Positions 5,231 to 54,612 of a stretch of 64,000 nt of DNA are shown in pieces. This DNA comes from Acidimicrobiia bacterium (GTDB taxonomy: Bacteria > Actinomycetota > Acidimicrobiia > Spongiisociales > ZC4RG35). Both the position numbers and the translations under genes were made by a program. Position 1 is the first letter of the stretch; every line of letters begins with the position of its first letter. The notes beneath the pieces were generated by a model. That model ran no database searches and was not told the DNA's origin. It saw only the letters and a list, made by a program, of their open reading frames with translations. Location: assembly GCA_035281645.1 (NCBI GenBank), contig DATEDN010000079.1, positions 9,407 through 73,406 on the forward strand, given 5' to 3'.

Positions 5231-5245
5231 GCGTAGGTCCGATCG

Positions 5246-33701: not shown

Positions 33702-33733
33702 CCAGAGAATTCGCTTTAGCCTCCCCGGGCACC

Positions 33734-37371: not shown

Positions 37372-38900
37372 TGCCGCGGGAAGGAGCCAGGCGGGCCGAA
37401 CGTCGGGCTAGCCGCAGTGGTGGGGTCCGCCAACTGGCCTGGCGCTCACTTCGTAACCCCTATCACCCGATTGACGTCATCTCGACCGACCAAATCGAGG
37501 CCATCCACCAAACGTCATTGCGAATCCTGGCCGAAATCGGGATGGACTTTCTCCACCCCGAGGCACTATCGATTTTCTCCGAGGCGGGAGCGATGGTGGA
37601 AGCCGGCAGCAATCGGGTCCGCTTCGACCCCGACTGGGTTATCGACAAGGTGTCAACCGTGCCAGACACCTTCGCGCTACATGCCCGCAACCCCGAGCAC
37701 AACGTCACAGTCGGTGGAAACCACATCAATTTCGCCACCGTCGCCTCTCCCCCTAACGCTTCCGATGCGGATCGCGGACGACGCAGTGGCAACTTCGACG
37801 ACTTCCAAAACCTGATTCGGTTGGGGCAGAGCTTCAACATCATCCATCTCTTCGGTGGGTACCCGGTCGAGCCGGTCGATCTCCCCCCGAGTACGCGCCA
37901 TCTCGATTGCCTTTCCGCTGTCGTAACCCTGGGGGACAAGGCGTTTCACTCGTATGCATTGGGGCGGGAGCGGATGACAGACGCGATCGAGATCGCTCGC
38001 ATTGCCCGGGGGGTCAGCGCGGAACAGCTCCGTGGCGAGCCCTCGCTGTTCACTGTGGTCAACACTTCCTCACCGCTTCGTCTCGACGGGCCGATGATCG
38101 AGGGGCTGATCGAGATGGCGCGCATGGGTCAGGTGGTGATCGCCACTCCCTTCACCCTTTCGGGGGCGATGGCACCCGCCACCATCGCCGGGGCCCTGGC
38201 CCAGCAGAACGCAGAGGCACTGGCCACGATCGTGCTGATCCAGTGCGTCAATCCCGGTGCCCCGGCGATGTATGGGGGATTCACCTCCAACGTCGACATG
38301 CGCTCGGGCGCCCCCGCCTTCGGCACTCCGGAGTACACCAAAGCGGCGCTGGCGGGCGGCCAGCTCGCCCGTCGATACGGATTTCCCTATCGATCCTCGA
38401 ACGCCTGTGCCGCCAATGCGGTCGATTCCCAGGCCGCGTATGAGGCCGAGATGTCGACCTGGGGAGCGGTCATGGGGCACGCCAACTTGATCATGCATGG
38501 CGCCGGTTGGATGGAAGGGGGACTGACGGCCTCGTTCGAGAAGTTCATTATCGATGTGGAGATCCTGCAGATGATGAGTGAATTCCTGCAGCCGCTGACG
38601 GTGGACGAGGCCAGCCTGGCCCTCGACGCCATTGCCGAGGTGGGGCCCGGTGGACATTTCTTCGGCGCTGCCCACACTCTCGAGCGCTACGAAAGCGCCT
38701 TCTACTCTCCGATTGTCTCTGACTGGCGAAACTTCGAGAGTTGGGAACTGGCCGGGTCTCCCACCGCCGAGCAGCATGCCAACCGGGTTTGGAAAGAGGC
38801 TCTGGAAACCTTTTCCCCGCCTCCCCTCCCCGACGACCGGGCCGCCGAGCTCGCCGATTTCGTCGAACGGCGCCGGTCCGAGGGAGGCGTCAGCGCGTGA
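37371..38900 (+). CDS. MttB-superfamily protein, non-pyrrolysine, paralog 2
   Basis: 509 aa with no in-frame TAG. Long blocks are shared with paralog 1 (TPFTLSGAMAP, FTSNVDMRSGAPAFGTPE, EKFIIDVE). 1-nt TGATG overlap with the upstream oxidase. Confidence 0.85.
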   Translation: MPREGARRAERRASRSGGVRQLAWRSLRNPYHPIDVISTDQIEAIHQTSLRILAEIGMDFLHPEALSIFSEAGAMVEAGSNRVRFDPDWVIDKVSTVPDTFALHARNPEHNVTVGGNHINFATVASPPNASDADRGRRSGNFDDFQNLIRLGQSFNIIHLFGGYPVEPVDLPPSTRHLDCLSAVVTLGDKAFHSYALGRERMTDAIEIARIARGVSAEQLRGEPSLFTVVNTSSPLRLDGPMIEGLIEMARMGQVVIATPFTLSGAMAPATIAGALAQQNAEALATIVLIQCVNPGAPAMYGGFTSNVDMRSGAPAFGTPEYTKAALAGGQLARRYGFPYRSSNACAANAVDSQAAYEAEMSTWGAVMGHANLIMHGAGWMEGGLTASFEKFIIDVEILQMMSEFLQPLTVDEASLALDAIAEVGPGGHFFGAAHTLERYESAFYSPIVSDWRNFESWELAGSPTAEQHANRVWKEALETFSPPPLPDDRAAELADFVERRRSEGGVSA

Positions 38901-38924
38901 CTCACCGCCCCGGGTGCCTGCCGC

Positions 38925-39200
38925 TCAGGACTGCGAACGGCCGCCTCTCTCAGGCACCAGCGTCGAAGCTACTACTGATCCATCCGCATTAGGGGTGAAC
39001 GTGAGGGCCCAGTTCCCGTCGATAAAGGCGCTCGCTGCCGGGAAGAAGTACCAGGTGTCCTCGATCTCGTCGACGTTGCCCCCGATGCGAAATTTGACGG
39101 TGCCGGTGTCGGAGAGATCAACGCCGCCACCGCCGCCTCCGCAGGCCACGGTCAGCATCGAGAGCACCAGGAACAGCACAAACGCACGGCGATAGGTCAT
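38925..39200 (-). CDS. small predicted lipoprotein, unknown function
   Basis: 91 aa. Signal peptide with lipobox MTYRRAFVLFLVLSMLTVAC followed by a Gly run. Confidence 0.5.
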   Translation of the reverse strand: MTYRRAFVLFLVLSMLTVACGGGGGGVDLSDTGTVKFRIGGNVDEIEDTWYFFPAASAFIDGNWALTFTPNADGSVVASTLVPERGGRSQS

Positions 39201-39288
39201 AGACGGAAGCTATCGAAGGTCGGGCGTCGGTCGCACTAGGGAAACCCCTAGGTCATGAGAACGGCCTCTCGCCGCGTAGGCTCGCTCT

Positions 39289-40467
39289 GTGCGGGCGACT
39301 GATCTGCTGGCTCAGATAGAGACGATCGGCCGGGAGCCCACCACAGGCGGCTACCGACGATTTTCCTGGACCGCAGCCGACGCCGAACTACGGCAATGGT
39401 TCTCCTCCCAGGCCAAAACCAGGGGACTATCCCTCGAGGTCGACCGCAATGGCAATCTGTGGGCCTACCGGGGCGACCCGGTGCCCGGCGGGGTCGTGGC
39501 GGTCGGCAGTCATCTCGATTCGGTCCCTGACGGCGGCCAGTTCGACGGACCGCTGGGAATCGCTTCCGCCTTCGCAGCCCTCGATCTCATGGCCGGCCAG
39601 GGGGTCGATCCACCTAGTCCGCTGGCGGTCGTGGGCTTCGTCGAGGAAGAAGGAGCCCGCTTCGGGGTGGCCTGTCTCGGATCCCGGCTCGGCACCGGGT
39701 CGATCGAGCCCGAGAAGGCCGCGTTGCTCAGCGATGGCGAGGGTGTCACCTGGGCCGAAGCGATGGATCGGGCGGGGCTCGACGCAGGCTCGATCGGGGC
39801 AGACCAACCACGACTCGAGCAGTTGCGATGTTTTGTCGAGCTCCACATCGAGCAGGGTCGAGCCCTGGAACCGGCCGGGGCAGCTGTTGGTATAGGCACT
39901 GAGATTTGGCCGCACGGCCGCTGGCGATTCGTATTCGGGGGAGAGGCCAACCACGCCGGCACCACCGCCATGGACGATCGTCAGGATCCGATGCCCAGGC
40001 TGGCAGAAACCATTCTCCAGGTGACAGAGGACGCCCGCCGCCTAGGCGCCCGGGCAACTTTTGGACGGCTCCTGGTCGAACCGAACGGGGTCAATGCGAT
40101 CCCGTCGCTGGTGACCGGCTGGCTCGACGCTCGCGCTCCCAACCAGGCTTTGTTGGACCAGGTCGTCGGATCTCTTCATTCTCGCCCGGGAATCTCGGTC
40201 ACGACGCAATCTTCATCACCGGCTGTCCACTTCGACCCGGCGCTACGAGCGGGCGTAGAAGAGGTCCTTCCCTCTCTGCCTCCGATCCCGACTGCGGCAG
40301 GCCACGACGCCGGGATCCTGGCGGGGGCCGGGGTACCAACCACGATGCTCTTTGTTCGCAACCGCAGCGGGGTCTCCCATTCCCCTAAGGAACATGCCGA
40401 CCCGGGCGACATCGAGGCCGGCGTCGAGGCCCTTGCTCGGGTGATCGCTCATCTGGCTGGAAAATGA
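39289..40467 (+). CDS. M20-family Zn-dependent amidohydrolase (allantoate amidohydrolase / N-carbamoyl-amino-acid hydrolase family)
   Basis: 392 aa with a GTG start. GGYRRFSWT, VAVGSHLDSVPDGGQFDGPLG, and the HA/E motifs of AllC/HyuC-type hydrolases. Confidence 0.8.
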   Translation: MRATDLLAQIETIGREPTTGGYRRFSWTAADAELRQWFSSQAKTRGLSLEVDRNGNLWAYRGDPVPGGVVAVGSHLDSVPDGGQFDGPLGIASAFAALDLMAGQGVDPPSPLAVVGFVEEEGARFGVACLGSRLGTGSIEPEKAALLSDGEGVTWAEAMDRAGLDAGSIGADQPRLEQLRCFVELHIEQGRALEPAGAAVGIGTEIWPHGRWRFVFGGEANHAGTTAMDDRQDPMPRLAETILQVTEDARRLGARATFGRLLVEPNGVNAIPSLVTGWLDARAPNQALLDQVVGSLHSRPGISVTTQSSSPAVHFDPALRAGVEEVLPSLPPIPTAAGHDAGILAGAGVPTTMLFVRNRSGVSHSPKEHADPGDIEAGVEALARVIAHLAGK

Positions 40468-41729
40468 CGTCGTTCTGGTGCCAACAAGCATGGATCTCGG
40501 GCCAGGCCGTGCCGTCGGTGGCCATCGAAGCGAGCACCGACGGGAAGATCGCTGCCGTCGAGGTAGGAGTCGATCCGGGCAACCGCCATCGGTTGGACGG
40601 CTTGGTGTTCCCCGGGCTGGCCAACGCTCACTCCCACGCCTTTCACCGCGCTCTCCGGGGAAGAGCCTCGACCCAGAAGGACTTTTGGGCCTGGCGGGAG
40701 GCGATGTACAGGGTCGCCGACGGCCTCGACCCCGATTCCTACCTCGACTTGGGCACAAGGGTCTATCGGGAGATGGCCCTCGCCGGTTTCACCGCCGTCG
40801 GCGAGTTTCACTACCTCCACCACGGACCCGGCGGAGTGCCTTATTCGAATCCCAACGCCATGGGTGAAGCTCTTCGACATGCTGCGGCGAGGGCCGGGAT
40901 TCGACTGACCCTCCTCGATACGTGCTATCTGGCGGGAGGTATTGGAATCGAGCTTTCGCCCACCCAGCAACGTTTCGCCGACGGGTCGGTGGAGGCTTGG
41001 AGCCAGCGACGGCAACTGCTGACAGAAGACGCCAACACTCGGATCGGAGTCGCGATCCACTCGGTGAGAGCGGTCAAGCCTCCCGATCTGGCTCTAGTCG
41101 CGACGGAGGCAGAACGCCTTCCCCTCCACGTCCACATCTCCGAACAGGTGGCCGAGAACGAGGCGGCGCAGGCTGCCTACGGCCTTTCCCCCACCGAACT
41201 CCTGCAGCGGGCGGGGGCCTTGGGTCCACTCAGTACCGCAGTTCACGCCATTCATCTCAGCGCCCACGACCGCCAAATCCTGAGTGGATCGGGGACAACG
41301 GTTTGCGCCTGCCCCACCACCGAGGCCGATCTCGGCGACGGCATCGGTCCATTCTCGATTCTGGCTCGCTCCGGCGTACCCCTAGCCGTGGGTAGCGATC
41401 AGCACGTGCGAATCGACCCCTTCGAAGAAGTGCGGCGCCTCGAGATGGATCAACGTCTCGCGCTGGGAGATCGCGGCCATTTCAGTGCTTTCGACCTGGT
41501 AGAGATCTTGAGCGAGAACGGTTACCGATCGATTGGTTGGGATGAGGGCGGCAAAATCGCGCTCGGGGGCCTCTGTGACTTGGTGGCGGTCCGCACCGAC
41601 ACCATTCGGACCGCGGGCGCCGACTTGTCGTCACTGATTTGGTCAGCCGGGCCGGGAGACATATCGGAAGTAGTAGTGGGTGGGAGGACCATTGTCCGTG
41701 ATGGGATCCACCTGATCAACGGTGATTGA
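40464..41729 (+). CDS. hutF: formimidoylglutamate deiminase
   Basis: 421 aa. PGLANAHSHAFHRALRGR...DFWAWREAMY is characteristic of HutF. 4-nt overlap with the upstream M20 gene. Confidence 0.8.
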   Translation: MTSFWCQQAWISGQAVPSVAIEASTDGKIAAVEVGVDPGNRHRLDGLVFPGLANAHSHAFHRALRGRASTQKDFWAWREAMYRVADGLDPDSYLDLGTRVYREMALAGFTAVGEFHYLHHGPGGVPYSNPNAMGEALRHAAARAGIRLTLLDTCYLAGGIGIELSPTQQRFADGSVEAWSQRRQLLTEDANTRIGVAIHSVRAVKPPDLALVATEAERLPLHVHISEQVAENEAAQAAYGLSPTELLQRAGALGPLSTAVHAIHLSAHDRQILSGSGTTVCACPTTEADLGDGIGPFSILARSGVPLAVGSDQHVRIDPFEEVRRLEMDQRLALGDRGHFSAFDLVEILSENGYRSIGWDEGGKIALGGLCDLVAVRTDTIRTAGADLSSLIWSAGPGDISEVVVGGRTIVRDGIHLINGD

Positions 41730-42810
41730 CCACCACCTCCCGAGCGGTTTGAGACAGGGTGGCGGTCATCGATTCAAGGGGACCGCGGCCGACAAAGTGC
41801 CGCCAGAGCAGCCCGAAGACAATCGCCACCGAGCCGTGGATCAAGAAAAGGCTCATGCGGTCATCCCTCCCTGCTCCGGTGGCCAGGGCCGCCACATGGA
41901 AGGTGTAGATCGACAAGGTCATCGCTCCTGCCGCCGCGATCCAATGGACCAAGCCAGCAATCAAAAGACACGCACCGATCACCAGCAAAGATGTCCCGAG
42001 TGTGTGGGCCAGGTCGAAAGGAGTAGCGGAATGAGGCGTGGAAACCGCTAGATACCACCACGTGGTGGTCGGGGTGACGCCGAAGAACTGGATAGGCAGC
42101 TCATCGACGAACCTCGAACCTCCCAGCGGTCCGAGCAGCAACGCCGAGCCGGCTTTGGCCGCCACCGCCAAAGCCCCTCCCACGAAGAAGATTTTCAGGG
42201 CATTGGGCTTCATGTTGAGGCGGCCGAGGCCCATGCCCATCCACAAGTACGCCATCCACGAGAACAAGGGGTAGTAGCCGGTCAAGAAGATCTCACGGAA
42301 AAGCAGAACCGGCTGGGCGAGCATGTCGAAGTCGGGCACGCTCAGTCCCGGCTCTGGCAGTCGCATCCTGAGGAGATGACTGAGAACCGGCCCGGCCACG
42401 ACCCATAACGAGGCCATCCATAGGAGGGCCTTGGCCCTGAGCCCGAGAAAGACTGATGCGAGCAGGAAAAGGAATCCGTAGTTGACCAGGATCACCGCCA
42501 CCCCTGATTGGAGTTCGCCCAAGAACAGGCCGATCAGGCCGATCACTGCCGCCCTCACGACCAGGGCCGTGCCCGCAGCCCGCAACGCCTCCCCTTTGGG
42601 TGGCTCGGTCCGTCCGTAAGCCAGAGCCAGCCCCACCCCGGCCAGCACTGCGAATAGCGCTGAGGATCGGCCAGAAGCGATGAAGTAAGCCGTCGAGATG
42701 GTGTTGTCGGGATCGCGGGAGGGAAGGATGTGGACCGCCATCATCCCGATGAGAGCCAGGCCTCGAGCGGCGTCGACCCCGATCAAGCGTTGGGGGGCTT
42801 CAGAATTCAC
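41716..42810 (-). CDS. integral membrane protein, DUF1624/DUF418 (acyltransferase-like) family
   Basis: 364-aa poly-TM ORF. The N-terminus RLIGVDAARGLALIGMMAVHI is typical of the family. Confidence 0.6.
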   Translation of the reverse strand: MNSEAPQRLIGVDAARGLALIGMMAVHILPSRDPDNTISTAYFIASGRSSALFAVLAGVGLALAYGRTEPPKGEALRAAGTALVVRAAVIGLIGLFLGELQSGVAVILVNYGFLFLLASVFLGLRAKALLWMASLWVVAGPVLSHLLRMRLPEPGLSVPDFDMLAQPVLLFREIFLTGYYPLFSWMAYLWMGMGLGRLNMKPNALKIFFVGGALAVAAKAGSALLLGPLGGSRFVDELPIQFFGVTPTTTWWYLAVSTPHSATPFDLAHTLGTSLLVIGACLLIAGLVHWIAAAGAMTLSIYTFHVAALATGAGRDDRMSLFLIHGSVAIVFGLLWRHFVGRGPLESMTATLSQTAREVVVNHR

Positions 42811-42878: not shown

Positions 42879-44093
42879 TCAGCCGGCGATGATCTGGAGC
42901 TCGGTGCCGATTCGATCAGCCATTTCGGCACAGGTCTGCAGATCGGGATGGCGAACGACGACCATGCCGTCACCCACCAGCTGCTGCTTCCAGTTGCGTC
43001 GCAAGGCCCCGATGGGATTGAGTTCAACCGCCGCCACCCAAGGGTCGAGTTCCGCCAGGAGGCGATCCAGACCCTCATATCGGAGAATTCTGCCCTGGCC
43101 GATAGCCCGCTTGAAGACGGTGGCAGCGTTGAACTTACGCTCGACCGGCTGGGAAATGCTCCCGTGCACCGCCGCCTCCGCCCAGGACCTGAACAGATCG
43201 ATGTCGGACGCGAAGTTCATTGCATCGACCGTTCTCCCTCCCGGCGGCCTGGCTCCGATCTCCCCGAAGACCGCCTCGCCATCGGGCCTCAAATACCACT
43301 CCATGTGGGTGAATCCGTCCCTGAAGTTCATTGCTTTCAGGACTTGGTGGCCCATCTCCTTCCCTGCCGCCAAGTAGGGGACGTCAGGATCTCGGAGCGC
43401 GACGGTCTGTTGACTCACCCATTCGTGGGTTTTGCCGATCAATGGTCGCGGTCGGTACCAGCACATGTTGTAGAAGAGCACCCGACCCTCTGAGCAGATG
43501 GTGTCGAAGGTGAACTCTTCCCCATCGACAAACTCCTCCACACTCACCTCTTCGACATGGCGGAGTTTGGGGAGGATCTTCTCGAGTTGCGCCCGATCGT
43601 TGACGCGAAAGGTGTCGGCCGATCCGGCGCCGGCTATGGGCTTGACGATGGCCGGGTAACCAATTTGATCGATAGCCTTCCAAACGTCATCTATCGACTT
43701 GGCGGAGTAATGATGCGGCGTCCGGATGCCCGCCGCATCCAGCACTTGCTTCATCGCCTCCTTGTCGCGAAAGGGAACTGTTTCCACCTGGCTCATGCCG
43801 GGCACTCGCAACAGCTCTCGAATCTGGGCTGCGAGGATCATCAGCGGCTCCCATAGCGATTCGATTCGTTCGACTTTCACTCGCTCTCCGATGGCGGCAG
43901 CAGTCTCGAGCACCGATTCCGGTCGGGAAAAGCTCACCTGGTAATAGGCCGCCAGTGCCCGGCGGGCCTTCTCGGGGACGTTGTGCTCAGGTTGATCGCC
44001 GAGCCCGATGACATTGGCCCCGACCTCGGCCAGGCCGCGCACAAAGTCCGTCATTTCCGTGGGAAATCCCGGCGATAGAAACAAAACGTTCAT
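42879..44093 (-). CDS. ATP-grasp domain protein, paralog A1
   Basis: 404 aa. MNVLFLSPGFP N-terminus and ATP-grasp core (GYPAIVKPIAGAGSADTFRV, VSVEEFVDGEEFTFD, HMEWYLRPDGEAVFGEIGARPPG). ATGA overlap with paralog A2. Confidence 0.8.
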   Translation of the reverse strand: MNVLFLSPGFPTEMTDFVRGLAEVGANVIGLGDQPEHNVPEKARRALAAYYQVSFSRPESVLETAAAIGERVKVERIESLWEPLMILAAQIRELLRVPGMSQVETVPFRDKEAMKQVLDAAGIRTPHHYSAKSIDDVWKAIDQIGYPAIVKPIAGAGSADTFRVNDRAQLEKILPKLRHVEEVSVEEFVDGEEFTFDTICSEGRVLFYNMCWYRPRPLIGKTHEWVSQQTVALRDPDVPYLAAGKEMGHQVLKAMNFRDGFTHMEWYLRPDGEAVFGEIGARPPGGRTVDAMNFASDIDLFRSWAEAAVHGSISQPVERKFNAATVFKRAIGQGRILRYEGLDRLLAELDPWVAAVELNPIGALRRNWKQQLVGDGMVVVRHPDLQTCAEMADRIGTELQIIAG

Positions 44094-45310
44094 CCCAGCT
44101 CCACCTTGACGTTGCTGACGATTGCCGCGATGGCCTCTTCCACCCGCCTGGTTTCGGGATGTCGCACGATCACAAAACCCTCACCCTCATAGTGACCGCT
44201 CGGAGTTTGTCCCTCTTTCGGAAGCTGGACCTCGACCACCGTTCCCGCTGCCACCGCTTGGGCTCGGTCGAGCCCGGTAATCCCGACCACCCGCCCTTGG
44301 CCCTGACCCCGCAAATACGCTGCCCCGACCGCGAACTTACGAGTCGGCGGGTCGAACTCCTCATATGTCATCAGCCGTCCCCACGCCTCATAGAGATCGA
44401 AGTCGTGAGCGTATGAGATCAAGGTCGAGAACTGAGCACCCGGGGGACGAACCGCGGCTTCCGAAATCGCAATCGAACCATCTGGCCGCCGAAACCACTC
44501 CATGTGGACAAGACCGGTCTCCAGGCCGAGGGTTGCGATTGCCCGCGGCCCTGCTTCACGGATGGCCTCGTACTCAGGTCCGGAGATGTCCTGGGGAAGG
44601 ATGACCGCCCACTGAATCCAGGGATTCTCCATCACCTGGAGCGGGGTGGGGTAATAGCGGGTGATGTTCCACCAAACCGCTCGTCCTTTGACAAACACGC
44701 AATCGAAGGCGTGCTCTTCGCCGATGACAAACTCCTCCAGCAAGGTCGGCTGTTTTTCGTCCGGCGCTGACCATTGGAGCCAATCCTCGACCTGTTGGGA
44801 ATCGTTCAAACGAAAAGTGTTGCGGGTGCCCGATCCCGCCGGAGGTTTCGCTACCACCGGCAGCCCGATCGCGGAGATGAAGCGGCGGGCTTCCTCCGCT
44901 GACCCCACCAGACGGTGACGTGCACATGGAAGTCCGTTCCGCGCCATCACACTCTTCATCCGGTCTTTGTCACGGAAGTTGCGGGCGGTCTCGACACCGA
45001 TTCCAGGAATGCCGAGCTGTTCGCGCACCACTGCCAGCGGAACCTGCAACTCCTCAAGCGGGCCCATCAGCCGGTCGACGCCTCCCATCTCGCGACCGAT
45101 GGCTGCAACCGCTCCCACGAGATGAGCGGTGTCGAGAGCGTTGTCCACCCTGAGGTGCGACGTCAGGCGATTGCTGACCTCAGCCCCGAGTTTCTCCCGC
45201 GGGTCGTGGCTTATCAGGCCAAGACGGACGCCAGGGGTGCGGGCAACGGCATCTATGAAGCGCGCGGTGGTAGGGAGAAAGTACGGCGCTACGAAAACGA
45301 CATCGGGCAC
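44090..45310 (-). CDS. ATP-grasp domain protein, paralog A2
   Basis: The start is provisionally GTG 45310; the track ORF runs to 45448, across the glgA start. GLPVVAKPPAGSGTRNTFRL, LLEEFVIGEEHAFD and HMEWFRRPDGSIAISEAAVRPPG are collinear with A1 and A3. Confidence 0.75.
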   Translation of the reverse strand: MPDVVFVAPYFLPTTARFIDAVARTPGVRLGLISHDPREKLGAEVSNRLTSHLRVDNALDTAHLVGAVAAIGREMGGVDRLMGPLEELQVPLAVVREQLGIPGIGVETARNFRDKDRMKSVMARNGLPCARHRLVGSAEEARRFISAIGLPVVAKPPAGSGTRNTFRLNDSQQVEDWLQWSAPDEKQPTLLEEFVIGEEHAFDCVFVKGRAVWWNITRYYPTPLQVMENPWIQWAVILPQDISGPEYEAIREAGPRAIATLGLETGLVHMEWFRRPDGSIAISEAAVRPPGAQFSTLISYAHDFDLYEAWGRLMTYEEFDPPTRKFAVGAAYLRGQGQGRVVGITGLDRAQAVAAGTVVEVQLPKEGQTPSGHYEGEGFVIVRHPETRRVEEAIAAIVSNVKVELG

Positions 45311-45372
45311 CAGAAAACGGTAGTGGGCACCGACCTGACCCCGCCCGACGAAGGGCGTGACAGAATCGAGTC

Positions 45373-46803
45373 GTGCGAATCCTGTTCGTGGCTGCCGAGG
45401 TCGCGCCCTTTTCCAAAACCGGCGGACTGGCGGATGTGGCTGATGCACTGCCCGAAGCCCTGCAGGCGATCGGACATGAACCCATGGTGGTCAGTCCTTT
45501 GTACTCCCGCATTCACGAGGGAAACCATCAGCTCCACCGAGTCTTCGAGTCGGTTCCCATCACTCTGCTGGGGGGAGAGCCTTTCGACGCCTACCTGGCA
45601 GAGGACGGCCGAAATTGGTTCATCGACTACCCCCGCTACTACGACCGGGAGGGGATTTACCGAAACGATGGTGACGAGCACCTCCGTTTCTTGTTTCTCA
45701 CCCACGCTGCCCTCGAGCTCTGCCGACGCCGCTCCTGGTCCCCCGAAATTGCCCATGCCAACGACTGGCACACCGGGTTGCTACCACTGTTCCTTCGGAG
45801 CACCTATCAGAGCGATCCGGTCCTTGCCCAGACTCGGTCGATTTTCACGATCCACAATCTCGCTTACCAGGGCGTCTTCGGAGCCGACATCGCCGGAGAG
45901 CTCCGTTTGGGAACTCAGAGCTACCTTCTACACCAGGACCATCTCCGCGAGGGCCGCCTTTCCTTTATGGAGCATGCCCTGATCTATGCCGATGCCATCA
46001 CCACGGTGTCCCCCACGTATGCCCGGGAGATCCAAACCCCGGAGTACGGCGTCGGCCTCGATGGGGTGCTCCGCTATCGCTCGAGCGATCTCTATGGGAT
46101 TCTGAACGGGATAGACACCATGGTCTGGAATCCGCGTACTGACGTCCGCATCCCGGTCAATTACTCCGAAATCTCCCTCGAAGCCAAGGGCGTCAATAGA
46201 GCAGCGCTGTTGGCGCGGGCAGGTGTGACGGGCGGCCTCAATCAAATGACGGTCGGCATCGTCAGCCGCCTAACTGGCCAGAAGGGGATCGAACTCCTGA
46301 TCCGCCCGCTGGCCCGACGCCTGGAATCAGGGCATATCAATTTCGTGGCGCTGGGATCGGGGGAGAATCGGTATGAGCAGGCTCTTACCTGGCTCGCCTC
46401 AACCTTCCCTTCCAGCGCCCATTTCCAACAGGGATACGACGAGGACATGGCCCATCTGATCGAGGCCGGTGCCGACGTGTTTCTCATGCCCTCGCGCTAT
46501 GAGCCGAGTGGACTCAATCAGATGTACAGCCTTGCCTACGGAACCCCGCCGATTGTCCGGCGCACGGGGGGTTTGGCAGATTCGGTCACCCATTACGATG
46601 CCGGGTCGGGTGAGGGAACCGGGTTCGTCTTCGACCACTACACCGAAGTCGGCCTGGCCTGGGCGCTCGATCAAGCCCTGGCGATATATCCGAACCGGGA
46701 ACAGTGGGAACGGCTGCAAAGGAACGGAATGTCAGAGGACAACTCCTGGGAGCGGCGAGCCGGCGAATATGACTATCTCTATCGCAAGGTGATCGCCTCG
46801 TGA
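45373..46803 (+). CDS. glgA: glycogen/starch synthase (GT5, ADP-glucose type)
   Basis: MRILFVAAEVAPFSKTGGLADV N-terminal signature, internal HNLAYQG, and C-terminal PSRYEPSGLNQMY...GGLADSV. Confidence 0.85.
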   Translation: MRILFVAAEVAPFSKTGGLADVADALPEALQAIGHEPMVVSPLYSRIHEGNHQLHRVFESVPITLLGGEPFDAYLAEDGRNWFIDYPRYYDREGIYRNDGDEHLRFLFLTHAALELCRRRSWSPEIAHANDWHTGLLPLFLRSTYQSDPVLAQTRSIFTIHNLAYQGVFGADIAGELRLGTQSYLLHQDHLREGRLSFMEHALIYADAITTVSPTYAREIQTPEYGVGLDGVLRYRSSDLYGILNGIDTMVWNPRTDVRIPVNYSEISLEAKGVNRAALLARAGVTGGLNQMTVGIVSRLTGQKGIELLIRPLARRLESGHINFVALGSGENRYEQALTWLASTFPSSAHFQQGYDEDMAHLIEAGADVFLMPSRYEPSGLNQMYSLAYGTPPIVRRTGGLADSVTHYDAGSGEGTGFVFDHYTEVGLAWALDQALAIYPNREQWERLQRNGMSEDNSWERRAGEYDYLYRKVIAS

Positions 46804-48020
46804 ATGTGATCTTCGTCGAACCGAGCTTTCCCAATTACCAGCGGGAGTTTCCCCGGGCATTGGCGACGGTCGGGGCAACTGTGATCGGTATCGGCGAGCG
46901 CCCCAAAGACTGGCTCGATCCCGAGATGAAGGGCTGGCTCACCCACTATGAACAGGTCGGATCGGTAGTCGACGTAGAAGCGCTCGAACAGGCCGTGCGA
47001 CTCGTCCAGTCCCGTGTAAATGTCGATCGGCTCGAGGCGACGATCGAGGCGCATGTCGAAGCGGCTGCCGCGGTCCGGGAGCGCTGCGGAATCCCCGGGA
47101 CGTCCTCCTACACCGCGTTCTTGTGCCGCGACAAACCCGCCATGAAGGAAGCTCTTCGTCAGGTGGGCGTCCCCACCGCGCAATCGGCCGGGGTCGGAAG
47201 CGCCGAAGAACTCTATGCCTTTGCTCATCACGTTGGTTATCCGCTGATCATCAAGCCCAGGGACGCCGCGGGTGCCTCGGGGACGCGCCGAGTTGACAGC
47301 GATGCCGATGTGCAGGCGGCTCTCCCCTCACTGGGGTTCGACTACGGGCGCTCAGTGGCGGTGGAAGAGTTCATCGAGGGACACGAGGGCTTCTATGACA
47401 CGATCTCGATCGACGGCAAAGTCGCATGCGACTTCGTCAGCCACTACTACCCGGGCGTTCTCGAGGCTATGCGCACCCGATGGATCTCACCGGTGTTCAT
47501 CACCAGCAATCGCATCGACCAGTCCGGCTACGACGAAGTGAAGGCACTGGGCCAGCGAGTAATTCCGGCCCTGGGGATCGGTACTTCCGCCACTCATATG
47601 GAATGGTTCTACGGGCCGAAGGGTCTGAAGTTCTCAGAGATCGGCTGCCGGCCACCCGGAGTCGGGGCCTGGGATCTCTATTGCGCGGCCAACGATCTCG
47701 ATGTCTACCAAGAATGGGCCATGGCGATTTGCTACGGGAGAATTGCTCGTCAACCCTCCCGTCGCTTCTCCGCCGGCATCATCGCCCTTCGCCCCGATCG
47801 AGACGGTGTGATCAGTGGATACGAAGGAATGGCAGAAGTACAGGACCGCTACGGCGGGTTGATCATCGACTATCACCTGCCGCCGCCCGGAACCCCCACC
47901 CAGCCCGTCGAAGCGGGGTACATGGCCAACGCCTGGGTCCGGATGCGCCACGAGGATTACGACGAATTGCGGGGGATTCTTCAACACGTTGGCGAGATTG
48001 CGCAGGTGCGAGCAGTCTGA
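46800..48020 (+). CDS. ATP-grasp domain protein, paralog A3
   Basis: 406 aa with a GTG start in a GTGA overlap with the glgA stop. MNVIFVEPSFP, GYPLIIKPRDAAGASGTRRV, VAVEEFIEGHEGFYD and HMEWFYGPKGLKFSEIGCRPPG. Confidence 0.8.
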   Translation: MNVIFVEPSFPNYQREFPRALATVGATVIGIGERPKDWLDPEMKGWLTHYEQVGSVVDVEALEQAVRLVQSRVNVDRLEATIEAHVEAAAAVRERCGIPGTSSYTAFLCRDKPAMKEALRQVGVPTAQSAGVGSAEELYAFAHHVGYPLIIKPRDAAGASGTRRVDSDADVQAALPSLGFDYGRSVAVEEFIEGHEGFYDTISIDGKVACDFVSHYYPGVLEAMRTRWISPVFITSNRIDQSGYDEVKALGQRVIPALGIGTSATHMEWFYGPKGLKFSEIGCRPPGVGAWDLYCAANDLDVYQEWAMAICYGRIARQPSRRFSAGIIALRPDRDGVISGYEGMAEVQDRYGGLIIDYHLPPPGTPTQPVEAGYMANAWVRMRHEDYDELRGILQHVGEIAQVRAV

Positions 48021-49090
48021 TGACAGCACCTGAGATTCTCGAACCGTTGCGCGAGGCGGACGCGGCGGCGATCGACCTATTTGTAAGCAGCAAGCAATTT
48101 CCGCTGATCGAGCAAGGTAAAGCGACCTTCCTCTTCCGGGGGCAAGCCGATGCAGTGGCCCTCCGACCGATGATGGCCGGATTTCCCGGTCAGCACCGGT
48201 TTGCTCGTCTTGATGGACACGACCTCTGGTGGTTGCGAATGTCGCTCCCAGACGGTGCGCGGCTCGAATACAAGCTCGAGGTTCAGCGGGATCATCACGC
48301 CGACTGGATCAACGACCCGCTCAATCCACTGACCACTACCAACCCTTTCGGGACCAACTCGGTTTGTCGCGGCTTCGGTTACAAAGTTCCCGACTTTGCG
48401 GAGGTTCATCCCGAGACTCCCACCGGATCCTTCTCCGACCTGTTCGTTTCCTCTCGGAAGCTGACGTTGTACCGCCCGGCCTCCTTCGAAGCCCACCGGG
48501 CGTATCCGCTCCTCTTCGTCCACGATGGGGGCGACTACCTCCAGTACGGGTCGATGGCGCTGGTACTCGACAACCTGATCCATGCCGGAGTCGTGGGCCC
48601 GCTAGTGGCCGCTTTTTCCTGGCCTCAAGAGCGGCTTCATGAGTACGCCGCCAACGAAGAGCACGCTCGCTTCGTGGTTGAGGAGGCCTTGCCGGCGATC
48701 GGGAACGAAATTCCCCTGCTGGACCGGCGAGTAGTCATGGGAGCCAGCCTGGGAGCGGTGGCTGCGCTCCACACGGCGTGGCGATATCCCGAAGCCTTCG
48801 GGGGGATGATCCTCCAGTCGGGGACCTTCGCTCAGACCAGGGGCTGGGGGTCCGCCCAGCACCTCCTCGCTCCAATTGCCAACCTGCTGCATCGTCTGGA
48901 GCCTTCGCGACTGCCCCAGCGTGTATTCATGTCTTGTGGAACGTTCGAGCGCATGATCGGCGAGAACCGGACCATGTCGCATCGCTTGCAACGAGCCGGC
49001 CTGAAGGTGAAGTACATCGAAAGCCGGGACGGCCACACCTGGGAGGCTTGGCGGGACCGACTCTCGGAGGCCTTGGACTGGGTCTTCTGA
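48020..49090 (+). CDS. putative esterase (esterase-D/enterochelin-esterase-like alpha/beta hydrolase) with an N-terminal beta-sandwich domain
   Basis: Start moved to ATG 48020, a TGATG overlap; the track ORF 47426.. is a 5' read-through of A3 in another frame. PLLFVHDGGDY and nucleophile region GASLGAVAAL. The N-terminal part (ATFLFRG...WWLRMSLPDGARLEYKL) resembles Fes/CBM48-like modules. Confidence 0.7.
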   Translation: MTAPEILEPLREADAAAIDLFVSSKQFPLIEQGKATFLFRGQADAVALRPMMAGFPGQHRFARLDGHDLWWLRMSLPDGARLEYKLEVQRDHHADWINDPLNPLTTTNPFGTNSVCRGFGYKVPDFAEVHPETPTGSFSDLFVSSRKLTLYRPASFEAHRAYPLLFVHDGGDYLQYGSMALVLDNLIHAGVVGPLVAAFSWPQERLHEYAANEEHARFVVEEALPAIGNEIPLLDRRVVMGASLGAVAALHTAWRYPEAFGGMILQSGTFAQTRGWGSAQHLLAPIANLLHRLEPSRLPQRVFMSCGTFERMIGENRTMSHRLQRAGLKVKYIESRDGHTWEAWRDRLSEALDWVF

Positions 49091-49680
49091 TGGCGATCCC
49101 GGCGACGCTGAGGGGAACGATCTTGCACGGCCAGAGCGTCACTCTTCGTCCTCCGGTTCCAGACGACGCTTCCTCTCTCTTCGCGCCGACCCACGGGGAT
49201 GAGGAGAGGAATTCGGTGTGGACCTACATGGCGTATGGACCCTGGCCCTCTGAAGAAGCCTTCACCGAGTGGGTAGCGGAGCGCGCTGCCTCTTCCGACC
49301 CTTTGTGGTTCACGGTCGAACGAGAGAGCAGTCCGGTGGGCATGGCAACCATGTGCAACTACGCCCCCGAGCATCGTCGGGTGGAGTTGGGTCATATCTG
49401 GTACATCCCATCGGCACAACGAACTGTGGTGAATACCGAGGCGACCTACCTCTTGCTCAAGCACAGCTTCGAGAGCTATCAGGCGAGGCGCGTCGAATGG
49501 AAAGCCGACGCTCGTAACGAACGGTCGCGAGCGGCAGCTCTGCGCCTCGGCTTTTCCTTCGAGGGAATATTTCGCCAACACATGATCGTCAAGGGAGAAA
49601 ACCGCGACACGGTTTGGTTTGCCATGACCGACGGAGATTGGCCGGAGGTCGAGGCTCGCCTGCGTGCCAAACTCGCCTGA
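49090..49680 (+). CDS. GNAT-family N-acetyltransferase (RimJ/RimL-like)
   Basis: Start moved to ATG 49090, a TGATG overlap. 196 aa. LRPPVPDD..., VELGHIWY...QRTVVNTEATYLLLKHSFE...RVEWKADARNERSRAAALRLGFSFEG. Confidence 0.8.
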   Translation: MAIPATLRGTILHGQSVTLRPPVPDDASSLFAPTHGDEERNSVWTYMAYGPWPSEEAFTEWVAERAASSDPLWFTVERESSPVGMATMCNYAPEHRRVELGHIWYIPSAQRTVVNTEATYLLLKHSFESYQARRVEWKADARNERSRAAALRLGFSFEGIFRQHMIVKGENRDTVWFAMTDGDWPEVEARLRAKLA

Positions 49681-50273
49681 TGGAACCCACTCACATCCCC
49701 ACCTTTCTCGTCAAGCAAAAAATCACGGTGATGGTGAATCGATACGAGGTAAGGGCAGCGGAAGCGGACGGAACCGAGGGTTCCCTGCTCGCCTTCGCTC
49801 AACAGAAGCGAATGCAGTTCAAAGAAGAGGTCATCTTCTACGCCGACGAAGCCCGGAAGGAGCGGCTCTTCTCTTTCAAGGCCCGGCAGGGCCTCGACGT
49901 CCGCGCCGAGCACGATGTCTTCGATGCCGACGGCAACATCATCGGTTGGTTCAAGAAAGAGTTCGCCCAGAGCCTGCTGCGTTCTACCTGGCAACTCAGC
50001 TATGACGGGGTGACAGCCCGGGGCCAGGAGCGCAACCAAACCGTGGCGATTCTCCGCCGGATTTGGGACTTCATCCCGGTGGTGGGGGATATCTGGATTC
50101 CGTTCCTATTCCATTTCGACTTCGTCGATCAGGCCACCGGCCAGCAGGTGATGAGCAGCGAGCGGGCGGTGGCGGTTCGGGACCGCTACACGATCCAGGT
50201 CCCCGACCCCCGCTTGGACTTCCGGGTCGCCGCCTCGATGGCGGTAGCTCTCGACGCCCTCCAAAGCCGCTGA
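49680..50273 (+). CDS. LURP-one-related/scramblase-like (tubby C-terminal fold, YxjI-like) protein
   Basis: Start moved to ATG 49680, a TGATG overlap. 197 aa. The FLVKQKITVMVNRYEV...FAQQKRMQFKEEVIFYADE...FSFKAR pattern resembles the DUF567/LOR family. Confidence 0.55.
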   Translation: MEPTHIPTFLVKQKITVMVNRYEVRAAEADGTEGSLLAFAQQKRMQFKEEVIFYADEARKERLFSFKARQGLDVRAEHDVFDADGNIIGWFKKEFAQSLLRSTWQLSYDGVTARGQERNQTVAILRRIWDFIPVVGDIWIPFLFHFDFVDQATGQQVMSSERAVAVRDRYTIQVPDPRLDFRVAASMAVALDALQSR

Positions 50274-52424: not shown

Positions 52425-53426
52425 TCAGAGCCGGCGGCCGGGGTCGACGGGCGCCGCCCAATCGCTGATATGACCTTTTGCCAGCCAGTGTCCGGCAGTG
52501 ACTCCGATCATGGCGGCGTTGTCGGTGCAGAGCGCCGGTGCCGGCAGGCACAGGTTCACTCCCCGGTTTCCGGCCTCTTCTTCGAGCCGAGCCCGCAGCC
52601 GGCGGTTGGCCAGCACTCCACCACCGGCCCCGAGCACCTTGACCCCGGTGTCGTCCACCGCCCGCATGGTTTTATCCACCAGCACGTCGACGATCGCTTC
52701 CTGGACCGAGGCCGCCACGTCGGCCCGGGCTGGCAGCTCGCCACTCCGCTTGGCCTTGCGAAGATAGGTGCTCACCGAGGTCTTCAGGCCCGAGAAAGAC
52801 ACGTGATAGGGCCGATCCGGAATAGCCCGGGGAAAGGTCACGGCGCTGGGGTCCCCACCCTCGGCTGCCCGATCGATCTCGGGCCCACCAGGAAATCCAA
52901 GACCCAGCAGCCGGGCGAGCTTGTCAAATGCCTCGCCGGCAGCGTCATCGATGGTTTCCCCCATCACCTGGTACTCGCCCCAATCGCTGACATGGATTAT
53001 CTGAGAGTGACCGCCCGAGGCCAGGAGCACCACGGCGGCTGGCTGAAAGGTATCGAACTCGATCCGGGGGGCCATCAGGTGTCCCTCCATGTGATCGACC
53101 CCGATAAAGGGCAGCTGGCGAGCGTAAGCGGTCGCTTTGGCGAAGGAGTGCCCAACCAGCAAAGCCCCCACCAGCCCCGGGCCGGCGGTGGCAGCGACCG
53201 CATCGAGGTCGGCCGGATGAACCCCCGACTCCACCAACGCCCGATGGGTGAGAGGGCGGATGGCCTCAACGTGGGCCCGGGCCGCCACCTCCGGCACCAC
53301 TCCTCCAAATCGAGCATGCAAATCGACTTGCGAGGACAGGATCGAGGAGAGCACCTTCCGCCCCTTGACCACCGCCACTGCGGTCTCGTCGCAACTGGTC
53401 TCAAAGGCGAGGACCAGCGGGGTCAT
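52425..53426 (-). CDS. tsaD: tRNA N6-adenosine threonylcarbamoyltransferase TsaD
   Basis: Start moved to ATG 53426, an ATGA overlap with the rimI stop. LVLAFETSCDETAVAVV..., GVDHMEGH, and a Kae1/TsaD-family C-terminus. The track ORF to 53969 is an out-of-frame read-through over rimI. Confidence 0.9.
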   Translation of the reverse strand: MTPLVLAFETSCDETAVAVVKGRKVLSSILSSQVDLHARFGGVVPEVAARAHVEAIRPLTHRALVESGVHPADLDAVAATAGPGLVGALLVGHSFAKATAYARQLPFIGVDHMEGHLMAPRIEFDTFQPAAVVLLASGGHSQIIHVSDWGEYQVMGETIDDAAGEAFDKLARLLGLGFPGGPEIDRAAEGGDPSAVTFPRAIPDRPYHVSFSGLKTSVSTYLRKAKRSGELPARADVAASVQEAIVDVLVDKTMRAVDDTGVKVLGAGGGVLANRRLRARLEEEAGNRGVNLCLPAPALCTDNAAMIGVTAGHWLAKGHISDWAAPVDPGRRL

Positions 53427-53920
53427 GATCCGAGCTCCTGGCGGATGGAGTCGAGCCTCTCCTGGTAAAGGTCGCTGTCGATATCGTGGACCCACATGAT
53501 GAGCGCGTCCTCGTCGCGGTAATAGCCCTTGCGCACTCCTACCGGCGCCATACCGAACTTGTTGTAGAGCGCCTGGGCATTGCGATTCGAGACCCGGACC
53601 TCCAAGGTCAGACTGGAAGCGCCCGCCGACCGGGCGGCCGAGGCGAGTTCGAGCATCAGACGGGTCCCGAGGTTGCGGCCCCGCCAGGCCGCATCGACAG
53701 TCACTGAGGTGACGTGGGCATCGGGCAGCACCACCATCATCCCGCCATAACCAGCGATGCCGTCGGGTCCATCGGCCACGAGGTAGGTCCTTCCGGCGGC
53801 TACCAACTCGTCGCGAAAGATGCCCTCTGTCCAGGGAACGGGATAGGTGGCCTCCTCGATCTTGAGACAGGCAGCGATGTCGGCCTCGGACATCGTTCGA
53901 ATCACGAAGCCGAGGACCAC
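53423..53920 (-). CDS. rimI: ribosomal-protein-alanine N-acetyltransferase
   Basis: 165-aa GNAT (RGRNLGTRLMLEL acetyl-CoA motif) in the canonical position between tsaB and tsaD. Confidence 0.85.
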   Translation of the reverse strand: MVLGFVIRTMSEADIAACLKIEEATYPVPWTEGIFRDELVAAGRTYLVADGPDGIAGYGGMMVVLPDAHVTSVTVDAAWRGRNLGTRLMLELASAARSAGASSLTLEVRVSNRNAQALYNKFGMAPVGVRKGYYRDEDALIMWVHDIDSDLYQERLDSIRQELGS

Positions 53921-54612
53921 GGATCCTCGGGTGCCAGCTTTTCCCAGTTGAGGTTGACGTCGGGCTCACGCAGATAAAGAGGGGTCAAGGGCTCGGAGGC
54001 GAAGTTGTCCCGCTCGAGCTTTGACATACCGATCTCCAGCACCGCCCGCACCGACGGATATCGCGGCCGTCCCACCTTGACCCGGTGCTGGCCCCGCAAG
54101 ACGGACTCGGGAAGCACCGGCACATCTCCCACCACCAATGGGTTTCCGGGGTCAGACATCAGGACATCGCGCAGCTGGTCGGGGTGCATGAGCTCGGCCT
54201 CGCTGTCCCGCACCACTCCTCCAGGCACCGGGCGATAGGTGGAGACGGCGAGCTCGCCCCGCCGCACGTCCACCAAAGAGAAGATGTGCCGATGCCCGGT
54301 CGAGGCGGCCAGGGCCTGGGCGTCGAGCGAAGATGCCGTCACCACTGGAATGCCCAGCGCCGCCGACAGGCCCTGGGCGGTGGCGATCCCTACCCTGAGC
54401 CCGGTATAGAGCCCGGGACCGACGTCCACCACAATGGCGTCGAGGTCGTCGGGGAACCAGCCGGCCTGGTCGAGGCAGAAGTCGATGGCGGGAACGAGAA
54501 AGGTGCCGTGCCCAGTTCGATCGACCCGGGTGGCAGTCGCTTGCACCTGTCGATCGAGTGTCAGCGCTACTGCCGATTGCGCGGTGGCGGTCTCGATGGC
54601 GAGAAGCTTCAC
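53902..54612 (-). CDS. tsaB: tRNA threonylcarbamoyladenosine biosynthesis protein TsaB
   Basis: Start provisionally GTG 54612, a GTGA overlap with the tsaE stop. KLLAIETATAQSAVAL, GPGLYTGLRVGIATAQG. Confidence 0.8.
   Translation of the reverse strand: MKLLAIETATAQSAVALTLDRQVQATATRVDRTGHGTFLVPAIDFCLDQAGWFPDDLDAIVVDVGPGLYTGLRVGIATAQGLSAALGIPVVTASSLDAQALAASTGHRHIFSLVDVRRGELAVSTYRPVPGGVVRDSEAELMHPDQLRDVLMSDPGNPLVVGDVPVLPESVLRGQHRVKVGRPRYPSVRAVLEIGMSKLERDNFASEPLTPLYLREPDVNLNWEKLAPEDPWSSAS

Follow-up and report, generated by a model that had tools for sequence, protein, structure and literature searches.

This study concerns a cluster of seven genes at positions 42879-50273 of a 64,000-nucleotide stretch of DNA from an Acidimicrobiia bacterium (contig DATEDN010000079.1; the whole stretch is hereafter called the window), in which three paralogous ATP-grasp ligases (A1, A2, and A3) surround a gene for a glycogen synthase of the GlgA type, followed by genes for an esterase, a GNAT N-acetyltransferase, and a protein of 197 amino acids (aa). 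As set out below, the cluster is best explained as a pared-down form, particular to Acidimicrobiia, of a widespread cytoplasmic module. The list of open reading frames (ORFs), together with direct reading of the sequence, gives two divergent units, A2 to A1 on the minus strand and glgA to A3, esterase, GNAT, and the 197-aa ORF on the plus strand, with the following features:

42879-44093, minus strand: A1, ATP-grasp ligase paralogue, 404 aa; Pfam ATP-grasp_3
44090-45310, minus strand: A2, ATP-grasp ligase paralogue, 406 aa, GTG start; Pfam ATP-grasp
45311-45372, no strand: putative divergent control region of A2 and glgA, 62 bp, with two blocks conserved among Acidimicrobiia relatives
45373-46803, plus strand: cluster-type GlgA, a glycogen/starch synthase of the ADP-glucose type in family GT5, 476 aa; TIGR02095
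46800-48020, plus strand: A3, core ATP-grasp ligase, 406 aa; Pfam ATP-grasp; resembling L-amino-acid ligases (LALs)
48020-49090, plus strand: two-domain serine esterase with an N-terminal CBM48/Fes-like beta-sandwich and a PF00756 domain, 356 aa
49090-49680, plus strand: RimJ/RimL-type GNAT N-acetyltransferase, lineage-specific, 196 aa; Acetyltransf_3
49680-50273, plus strand: last ORF, of no recognised family ("LURP-like" unconfirmed), lineage-specific, 197 aa
50329-50355, no strand: GC-rich hairpin between the last ORF and the convergent groEL, 13-bp stem; probable bidirectional terminator

Within each unit the genes are joined by short overlaps, namely ATGA between A2 and A1, GTGA between glgA and A3, and TGATG at the remaining three plus-strand junctions, and the single intergenic gap inside the cluster is the 62 bp between A2 and glgA. 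This operon-like coupling, with its two divergent units and all of these overlaps, had been described in an earlier sequence-only reading of the same DNA and is borne out by direct inspection. The start of A2 was set at the GTG at 45310 in preference to position 45448, where the long ORF (452 aa) opens, because the resulting N-terminus (MPDVVFVAPYF) is collinear with those of A1 and A3; this GTG also lies 6 nt past a TACCGT hexamer kept in relatives. The hexamer appears on the forward strand as ACGGTA (45317-45322), and a second one, CAGAAT (45361-45366), is located 6 nt before the glgA GTG; both are retained among Acidimicrobiia relatives and may represent TANNNT-like -10 boxes of leaderless A2 and glgA transcripts. 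A consensus scan for promoters and terminators was uninformative and gave no sigma-70 match in this region. At the other end, the hairpin GAAACCCGGCCGCTAGGACCGGGTTTC forms its 13-bp stem within an intergenic structure of -43.5 kcal/mol and probably acts as a bidirectional terminator for the last ORF and groEL. Additional long ORFs at 44915-45982 (plus), 47426-48019 (plus), and 48832-49581 (minus) cover parts of the real genes in a different frame or on the opposite strand; such shadow ORFs are expected at 61% G+C, and some starts in the mechanically made ORF list are over-extended. None of the seven proteins matched the PADLOC models of anti-phage defence.

The three ligases had been described from the sequence as collinear paralogues of about 405 aa, and this description holds: they are 404-406 aa long, share 31-32% pairwise identity over their full length, and all keep the K-P, EEF, HMEW, and RPPG motifs, with tblastn E-values among them of about 1e-50, far beyond chance. 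In Pfam, A1 matches ATP-grasp_3 (32.7 bits; cutoff 23.2), and A2 and A3 match ATP-grasp (35.0 and 40.9 bits, respectively; cutoff 27), whereas LAL_C2 is matched by A2 only, weakly and below its cutoff (21.5 versus 29.4 bits). None of the three belongs to a characterized family of primary metabolism, as every NCBIfam match is far below its curated cutoff (the best being 76 bits versus 625). The cyanophycin synthetase models, for example, score 35.6-41.8 bits against cutoffs of 850-877 and cover the ATP-binding part only. When a profile of A3 orthologues was compared with the PDB, L-amino-acid ligases came first, namely RizA (4WD3; E 3e-19), followed by BacD/YwfE (3VMM) and BL00235 (3VOT), and Foldseek placed the same enzymes on top (E 4e-22) for an AlphaFold model of A3 (pLDDT 71.6). 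Profile and model thus point to LALs as the probable closest relatives of the cluster ligases, at an identity of 13-20% between A3 and the three enzymes. The likeness extends to a length of about 400 aa and to the ATP/Mg and catalytic Arg motifs, which A1, A2, and A3 all keep. Unlike the known LALs, which occur as lone genes in narrow pathways for antibiotics or dipeptides, the cluster has three to four conserved paralogues, occurs in more than 10 phyla, is coupled to GlgA, and reaches no curated LAL model. Orthologues of A1 (43-61% identical) stand beside A2 and A3 in many phyla, and those of A2 are 41-58% identical.

The assignment of the gene upstream of A3 to the GlgA type was confirmed. 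Its product scores 506.8 bits against TIGR02095 (cutoff 328.45), contains the KTGGL motif, and can be aligned with Escherichia coli GlgA over its whole length (2QZS; E 9e-86), so that in length, motif, and all residues checked it resembles canonical GT5 enzymes such as those of E. coli and Agrobacterium tumefaciens (1RZU). The E. coli residues E9, K15, D137, H161, R300, K305, and E377, which we take to have catalytic or ADP-glucose-related roles, are all kept in the window GlgA and in 30 of 30 members of its clade, and a further checked position, 355, varies between Y and F only, as in the canonical reference GlgAs. The cluster-type enzymes nevertheless stand apart from canonical GlgA. At four positions they have residues specific to the clade (H136N, S360A, T382N, and A386S, numbered as in E. 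coli), and the window protein remains below all curated GlgA equivalog cutoffs (467.7 versus 616, 459.4 versus 603, and 449.5 versus 459 bits). Its gene is not adjacent to the usual partners either; neither glgB, glgC, glgP, nor any other glycogen gene was found next to it or in the window flanks.

The tie between this glgA and A3 was assessed by counting cluster-type glgA genes (defined as at least 42% identical to the window GlgA) over the 66 A3 loci with enough upstream sequence. In 26 of them such a gene stands no more than 10 kb from A3, directly adjoining it in 19 (14 co-directional and 5 divergent) and located elsewhere within that distance in 7 more. The linked loci come from eight phylum-level groups, namely Myxococcota, Gammaproteobacteria, Planctomycetota, Acidimicrobiia, Acidobacteriota, Gemmatimonadota, Chloroflexota, and Krumholzibacteriota, and the 4-nt glgA/A3 overlap recurs in a Limnocylindria (Chloroflexota) genome. 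In a neighbour-joining tree (200 bootstraps) with the E. coli, A. tumefaciens, and barley SSI sequences from PDB alignments as references, all 30 A3-adjacent GlgAs from the eight phyla form one clade in 200 of 200 replicates, which excludes E. coli and Agrobacterium GlgA as well as the non-adjacent GlgAs of Myxococcota. The A3-adjacent proteins are 45-51% identical to the window GlgA and 35-41% to that of E. coli, and this holds even for the gammaproteobacterial members (46-48% versus 35-37%). Pairwise identities of A3 and GlgA co-vary (Spearman 0.54, over non-independent pairs). The adjacency, which the sequence-only reading had allowed might be accidental, is therefore not so: it recurs in eight phylum-level groups, in overlapping co-directional or divergent order, and with a GlgA clade of its own. 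We conclude that the cluster GT5 is, as far as its sequence can tell, a catalytically ordinary glucan synthase of a dedicated lineage that travels with the ligase cluster.

GT5 genes of two other lineages were also observed within 10 kb of the cluster (L038, 17719-19257, and L051, 19662-21122, as one pair; L075, 5972-7423, and L078, 5905-7368, as the other), one of these lineages being canonical GlgA-like and the other a divergent Gemmatimonadota type. In the tree, two Myxococcota GlgAs whose genes are 7-9 kb away from A3 fall among the canonical references, and two Gemmatimonadota GT5 genes beside A1 represent a third lineage. With two further lineages near the cluster, glucan synthases seem to have been recruited more than once.

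The gene most constantly linked to A3 is that of the esterase, an orthologue of which is present in 44 of the 53 loci with enough sequence (at least 6 kb) downstream of A3. The window protein scores 64.9 bits against PF00756, and Ser243 (within GASLG), Asp337, and His339 are invariant in 23 orthologues. Its structural model (pLDDT 92.6) consists of an N-terminal beta-sandwich and an alpha/beta-hydrolase domain, and the best Foldseek E-values belong to CBM48-CE1 feruloyl/acetyl-xylan esterases (7B5V, 6RZO, and 6NE9; 3e-23 to 1e-20), in agreement with the Fes/CBM48-like N-terminal domain that had been recognised from the sequence. The two-domain Ser-Asp-His architecture is common to the window esterase, the CBM48-CE1 enzymes, and the enterochelin esterase Fes (3C8D and 3MGA), at an identity of about 20% to either group. 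Unlike both, the window esterase is found outside any plant-cell-wall or siderophore gene context. Its best NCBIfam match is the enterochelin esterase, but it reaches only 80.2 bits in the Fes equivalog model (cutoff 222), and Enterochelin_N likewise remains below cutoff (23.3 versus 27.1 bits). The esterase is probably cytoplasmic, because it has no evident signal peptide and is encoded beside ATP-dependent enzymes.

The remaining two genes of the plus-strand unit are specific to a narrow lineage. The GNAT identity of the first is secure (Acetyltransf_3, 72.0 bits versus a cutoff of 25.4, of the RimJ/RimL type), and its nearest matches in the PDB, 3PZJ and 3TCV, are GNATs that are themselves uncharacterised. 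In three other Acidimicrobiia loci (L085-L087, 73-78% A3 identity), the order A1-A2, glgA-A3-esterase is kept and followed by a double GNAT of 326-333 aa. No similarity in sequence between it and the window GNAT could be detected, and its best model, in L085 and L086, is MshD (TIGR03448; 42-47 bits versus a cutoff of 163). The presence of two unrelated GNATs in the slot after the esterase suggests that an N-acetylation step may be wanted in Acidimicrobiia. The L085-L087 clusters are flanked by a gene of the mycothiol-dependent-enzyme family (MDMPI, TIGR03083) or a DinB gene and by a 432-443-aa rhodanese; in L004, an MDMPI gene lies between the GNAT and the last ORF. For the last ORF, the "LURP-one-like" label given earlier could not be reproduced, as the window protein has no match in Pfam (E up to 10), NCBIfam, or among PDB sequences. 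Its orthologue in L004 (77% identical) carries a precomputed PF04525 match, yet when rescanned it gives only Tubby_C_like at E 0.12. Among the loci mapped, this ORF is found in the window, L004, and L005 only.

The core of the cluster extends far beyond this lineage. A3 has thousands of close homologues, of which the best 120 listed are 67-97% identical and bear names spanning Acidimicrobiia, Myxococcales, and Limnocylindria. A pattern scan over one genome per species found A3-encoding loci in at least 594 species, which belong to more than 10 phyla; across these phyla the orthologues share 64-81% identity with the window A3. The best 80 of these loci, all 64-98% identical to the window A3, come from Acidimicrobiia, Myxococcota, Planctomycetota, Acidobacteriota, Gemmatimonadota, Dormibacterota, Chloroflexota, Krumholzibacteriota, Gamma- and Alphaproteobacteria, and Actinomycetes, the last including Ornithinimicrobium, Plantactinospora, and Nakamurella. 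The family is compact, since a library clustered at 50% identity holds 241 representatives at E<=1e-30. No A3 homologue was found among the PLSDB plasmids.

To map the wider cluster, the window proteins and the additional proteins of one Myxococcales locus were searched for in all loci. This gave a modular order of A1, A2, glgA, A3, X, esterase, Y, Z, GCS2-CBS, and an AstE/AspA-like gene, where X is a 320-aa S51-like hydrolase (containing GGH and SAGAM motifs and matching S51 weakly), Y is a divergent fourth ATP-grasp protein, remotely Ddl-like and without a Pfam match (L001, 7803-9038, and orthologues), and Z is a short PF00756-like protein, the second esterase of the wider cluster. In most lineages, Y is 57-82% identical to the Myxococcales reference, with many invariant Trp, Cys, and His residues. 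Over the same 53 loci in which the esterase was counted, Y occurs in 39 and X and Z in 36 each, and all-against-all clustering of the ORFs revealed no further widespread family. The window GNAT, the last ORF, and an HGSNAT-like neighbour proved by this clustering to be limited to the closest Acidimicrobiia relatives. The seven-gene neighbourhood whose conservation the sequence-only reading had proposed to follow is consequently not the conserved unit, and the widespread system has components (X, Y, Z, GCS2-CBS, and the AstE-like gene) of which no homologue is present in the window. The number of ligases per cluster ranges from 1 to 5 between lineages. The full ten-gene set occurs in L008, L013, and L060; A1-A2-glgA-A3 forms a stand-alone block in L089, L069, and L083; and A3-X-esterase stands alone, without glgA, in Ornithinimicrobium.

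No NCBIfam model reaches its cutoff for A1-A3, the esterase, X, Y, Z, GCS2-CBS, or the AstE-like protein, and the literature searched contains no description of such a ligase-glgA-esterase system, in keeping with the initial impression that none had been described. The enzyme classes are all known; it is their combination, its breadth, and the dedicated GlgA lineage that appear to be undescribed in the curated families and the literature searched.

As a functional interpretation, we tentatively favour a model that we consider quite possible, though short of probable, in which the ligases attach amino-acid or peptide groups to the alpha-glucan of the dedicated GlgA and the esterase removes them. 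The model is preferred because no other one draws on all the constant features of the system, which are a GlgA clade of its own, translational coupling, the free-standing A1-A2-glgA-A3 block, and, as the most constant partner, a hydrolase resembling polysaccharide esterases. The substrates, the ester link to the glucan, the order of the steps, and the physiological role that we infer for the pathway would be as follows. The cluster-type GlgA would polymerise ADP-glucose into an alpha-1,4-glucan. A3, as the universal core ligase, would convert a carboxylate, either an amino acid or an acidic metabolite, into an acyl-phosphate and pass the acyl group to a hydroxyl of the glucan, forming an ester, or to a glucan-borne amine, with the ester as the presumed first link. 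ATP-grasp enzymes can form esters, as in the D-Ala-D-lactate made by VanA and the omega-esters of graspetides. A1 and A2 would then lengthen or diversify the substituent by further amide bonds, and in the lineage of the window the GNAT would cap the free amine. Finally, the esterase may hold the polymer via its CBM48-like domain and cleave the ester link, thereby allowing turnover. Conceptually, the closest known products are ester-linked acyl or aminoacyl derivatives of polysaccharides or polyols, served by dedicated esterases, namely the acylated alpha-1,4-glucans (MGLP) of mycobacteria and D-alanylated teichoic acids. Their synthesis depends on acyl-CoA acyltransferases or the Dlt adenylation system, not on ATP-grasp enzymes. 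A broader proposal, which we regard as unlikely but worth stating, is that bacteria of soil, sediment, and sludge from more than 10 phyla make a storage glucan of a new, covalently modified kind that serves as a combined carbon-nitrogen reserve. If true, the dedicated GlgA clade would build the alpha-1,4-glucan, LAL-type ligases would esterify it and lengthen the substituents with amino-acid or peptide groups, as the first members of the ATP-grasp superfamily to use a polysaccharide, and cytoplasmic CBM48/CE1-like esterases would strip the groups off.

Several points weigh against glucan decoration. We know of no precedent for aminoacylated or peptidylated glycogen, and the peptide-type enzymes of the wider cluster (the S51-like hydrolase, the AstE/AspA-like deacylase, and the GCS2 ligase) would fit a free peptide equally well. 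In about 60% of the loci, no cluster-type glgA stands within 10 kb of A3, and among the loci compared none was found in the Actinomycetes or Dormibacterota versions of the cluster. The GlgA tree is built by neighbour joining with three outside references, and "dedicated" was judged from the clade and its linkage to A3, not from the number of glgA genes per carrier genome. As to the esterase, overall superposition is better with Fes (TM 0.75-0.78) than with the CBM48-CE1 enzymes (TM about 0.6), and to our knowledge the N-terminal domain of Fes is not a glycan binder.

The main competitor is a pathway with parallel products, in which the ligases build a free cytoplasmic oligopeptide or poly-amino acid and glgA is co-expressed only in that carbon and nitrogen reserves, or solutes, are formed under the same conditions; we consider this somewhat unlikely, but a serious contender. 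The product might be a reserve polymer on the logic of cyanophycin or an acidic, N-acetylated peptide that serves as a solute, such as NAGGN or NAAG, degraded by the esterase and, in other phyla, by the S51-like and AstE-like hydrolases. The adjacency of ligase and X, with the GGH and SAGAM motifs and weak S51 match of the latter, mirrors that of cphA and cphB, where an ATP-grasp ligase likewise stands beside an S51-type serine hydrolase and the theme is apparently again that of a reserve polymer, although the cluster ligases, unlike CphA, have neither a Mur-ligase domain nor its 900-aa architecture. The AstE/AspA-like and GCS2-CBS genes that complete the cluster in many phyla, the minimal A3-X-esterase set of Ornithinimicrobium, the variation in ligase number, and the window GNAT, which would yield an N-acetyl peptide, all agree with this explanation. 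It leaves unexplained, however, why a separate GlgA clade, and not the resident glgA, travels with the ligases across eight phyla and why glgA and A3 are translationally coupled; in addition, the constant hydrolase is a CBM48/CE1-like esterase and not a peptidase, and the window has no S51, AstE, or GCS2 gene. Glucan decoration and a small amide metabolite, the two alternatives raised in the sequence-only reading, thus stand as the two leading models, which in silico evidence does not separate.

The other explanations considered carry much less weight. The logic of mycothiol or bacillithiol biosynthesis, with a GT5 that glucosylates an acceptor, ligases that add amino acids (possibly cysteine), and a GNAT that acetylates, would lead to a small glycoside-peptide, and mycothiol itself is made by a comparable set of glycosyltransferase (MshA), ligase (MshC), and double GNAT (MshD). 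The sole basis for a thiol metabolite is the sulfur-flavoured surroundings of L085-L087, with their MshD-like double GNAT, MDMPI or DinB genes, and rhodanese, together with the GCS2 (glutamate-cysteine-ligase family) gene in other phyla; PF00756 also includes S-formylglutathione hydrolases, and FrmB is among the Foldseek matches of the esterase. This explanation is improbable, given that the cluster enzyme is a full-length GlgA of GT5, and not GT4, with all checked glycogen-synthase residues, that the ligases are of the ATP-grasp and not the aminoacyl-tRNA-synthetase-like type, and that the double GNAT misses the MshD cutoff (47 versus 163 bits) and is missing from the window. The genes for DinB/MDMPI and rhodanese moreover lie on the opposite strand and are confined to one class, and many carriers are Proteobacteria or Myxococcota, which are expected to use glutathione. 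The superposition of the esterase on Fes and its best NCBIfam match would also suit a depsipeptide or siderophore-like compound assembled by the ligases independently of nonribosomal peptide synthetases and hydrolysed after use. With 80 bits against a Fes cutoff of 222, no transporter, receptor, or catecholate/hydroxamate biosynthesis gene in the window region or the related loci examined, and a dedicated GlgA that such a compound does not explain, we judge this very improbable. Slightly less credit still is due to the absence of any functional unit, that is, to a housekeeping glgA located by chance beside unrelated ligase genes. Most A3 loci indeed have no glgA, and the window flanks are unrelated housekeeping genes, but linkage in 26 of 66 loci from eight phyla contrasts with a chance expectation that we estimate at well below 1% per genome, the stop/start overlap is common to Acidimicrobiia and Chloroflexota, and the adjacent GlgAs are monophyletic. 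Lastly, the combination of several ATP-grasp genes with a GNAT and a hydrolase recalls graspetide-type RiPPs, in which ATP-grasp enzymes cyclise a ribosomal precursor peptide. The possibility, mentioned in the sequence-only reading, is hardly credible because there is no room for a precursor: the gaps measure only 62, 68, and 102 bp, they contain no free-standing small ORF, and every ORF of at least 20 aa touching the two flanking gaps overlaps a coding gene. The ligases, moreover, appear to be four-domain LAL-like proteins of about 405 aa and not RimK-like.

The cluster merits attention under either of the two leading models. At 64-70%, the cross-phylum identity of A3 in at least 594 species is on a par with that of many housekeeping proteins; nonetheless, A3 and its partners have no curated family or, in the literature searched, publication, and a separate GlgA clade travels along with them. 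A chemical link to GlgA would mean that bacteria store modified polysaccharides of a new class and that ATP-grasp ligases use an acceptor of a new type; were the link only regulatory, the system would still amount to a new peptide or polymer pathway of wide occurrence, equipped with ligases and hydrolases of its own. Some carriers are in culture (Sorangium, Ornithinimicrobium, and Plantactinospora), and the A1-A2-glgA-A3 block is of a size that can be expressed in another host, so that the question lends itself to direct testing.

In the window, the cluster is surrounded by genes for glycine-betaine/dimethylglycine catabolism, hutF, groESL, and tsaBDE. The block at 31263-41729 resembles a glycine-betaine/dimethylglycine catabolic locus, with DAO-GCV_T fusion dehydrogenases at 31263-33701 and 34924-37371, an MttB-family methyltransferase (37371-38900), an amidohydrolase, an M20 peptidase, and the formimidoylglutamate deiminase gene hutF (40464-41729). 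Between this block and the cluster, a HGSNAT_cat/Acyl_transf_3-like membrane acyltransferase is encoded at 41716-42810 on the minus strand, 68 bp past A1 and on the same strand. An Acyl_transf_3 gene also precedes A3 in Ornithinimicrobium, but it is unrelated to that of the window, and the association does not recur elsewhere. The acyltransferase was considered as a part of the system and rejected, as it is not homologous across lineages and a regulator is inserted in the sister genome. There (L005, 98% A3 identity), a 906-aa ORF (3311-6031, minus strand) lies between the HGSNAT-like gene and A1, which in our reading of its sequence looks like an AAA-ATPase with a C-terminal LuxR-type helix-turn-helix domain; its absence from the window points to a recent insertion or deletion at the cluster's left end. 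On the right, the tsaD ORF (52425-53969, minus strand) encodes 514 aa, with the TsaD domain beginning at residue 205. As a separate RimI-like GNAT of 111-155 aa precedes tsaD in relatives, the window ORF may represent a fusion or have an over-extended start.

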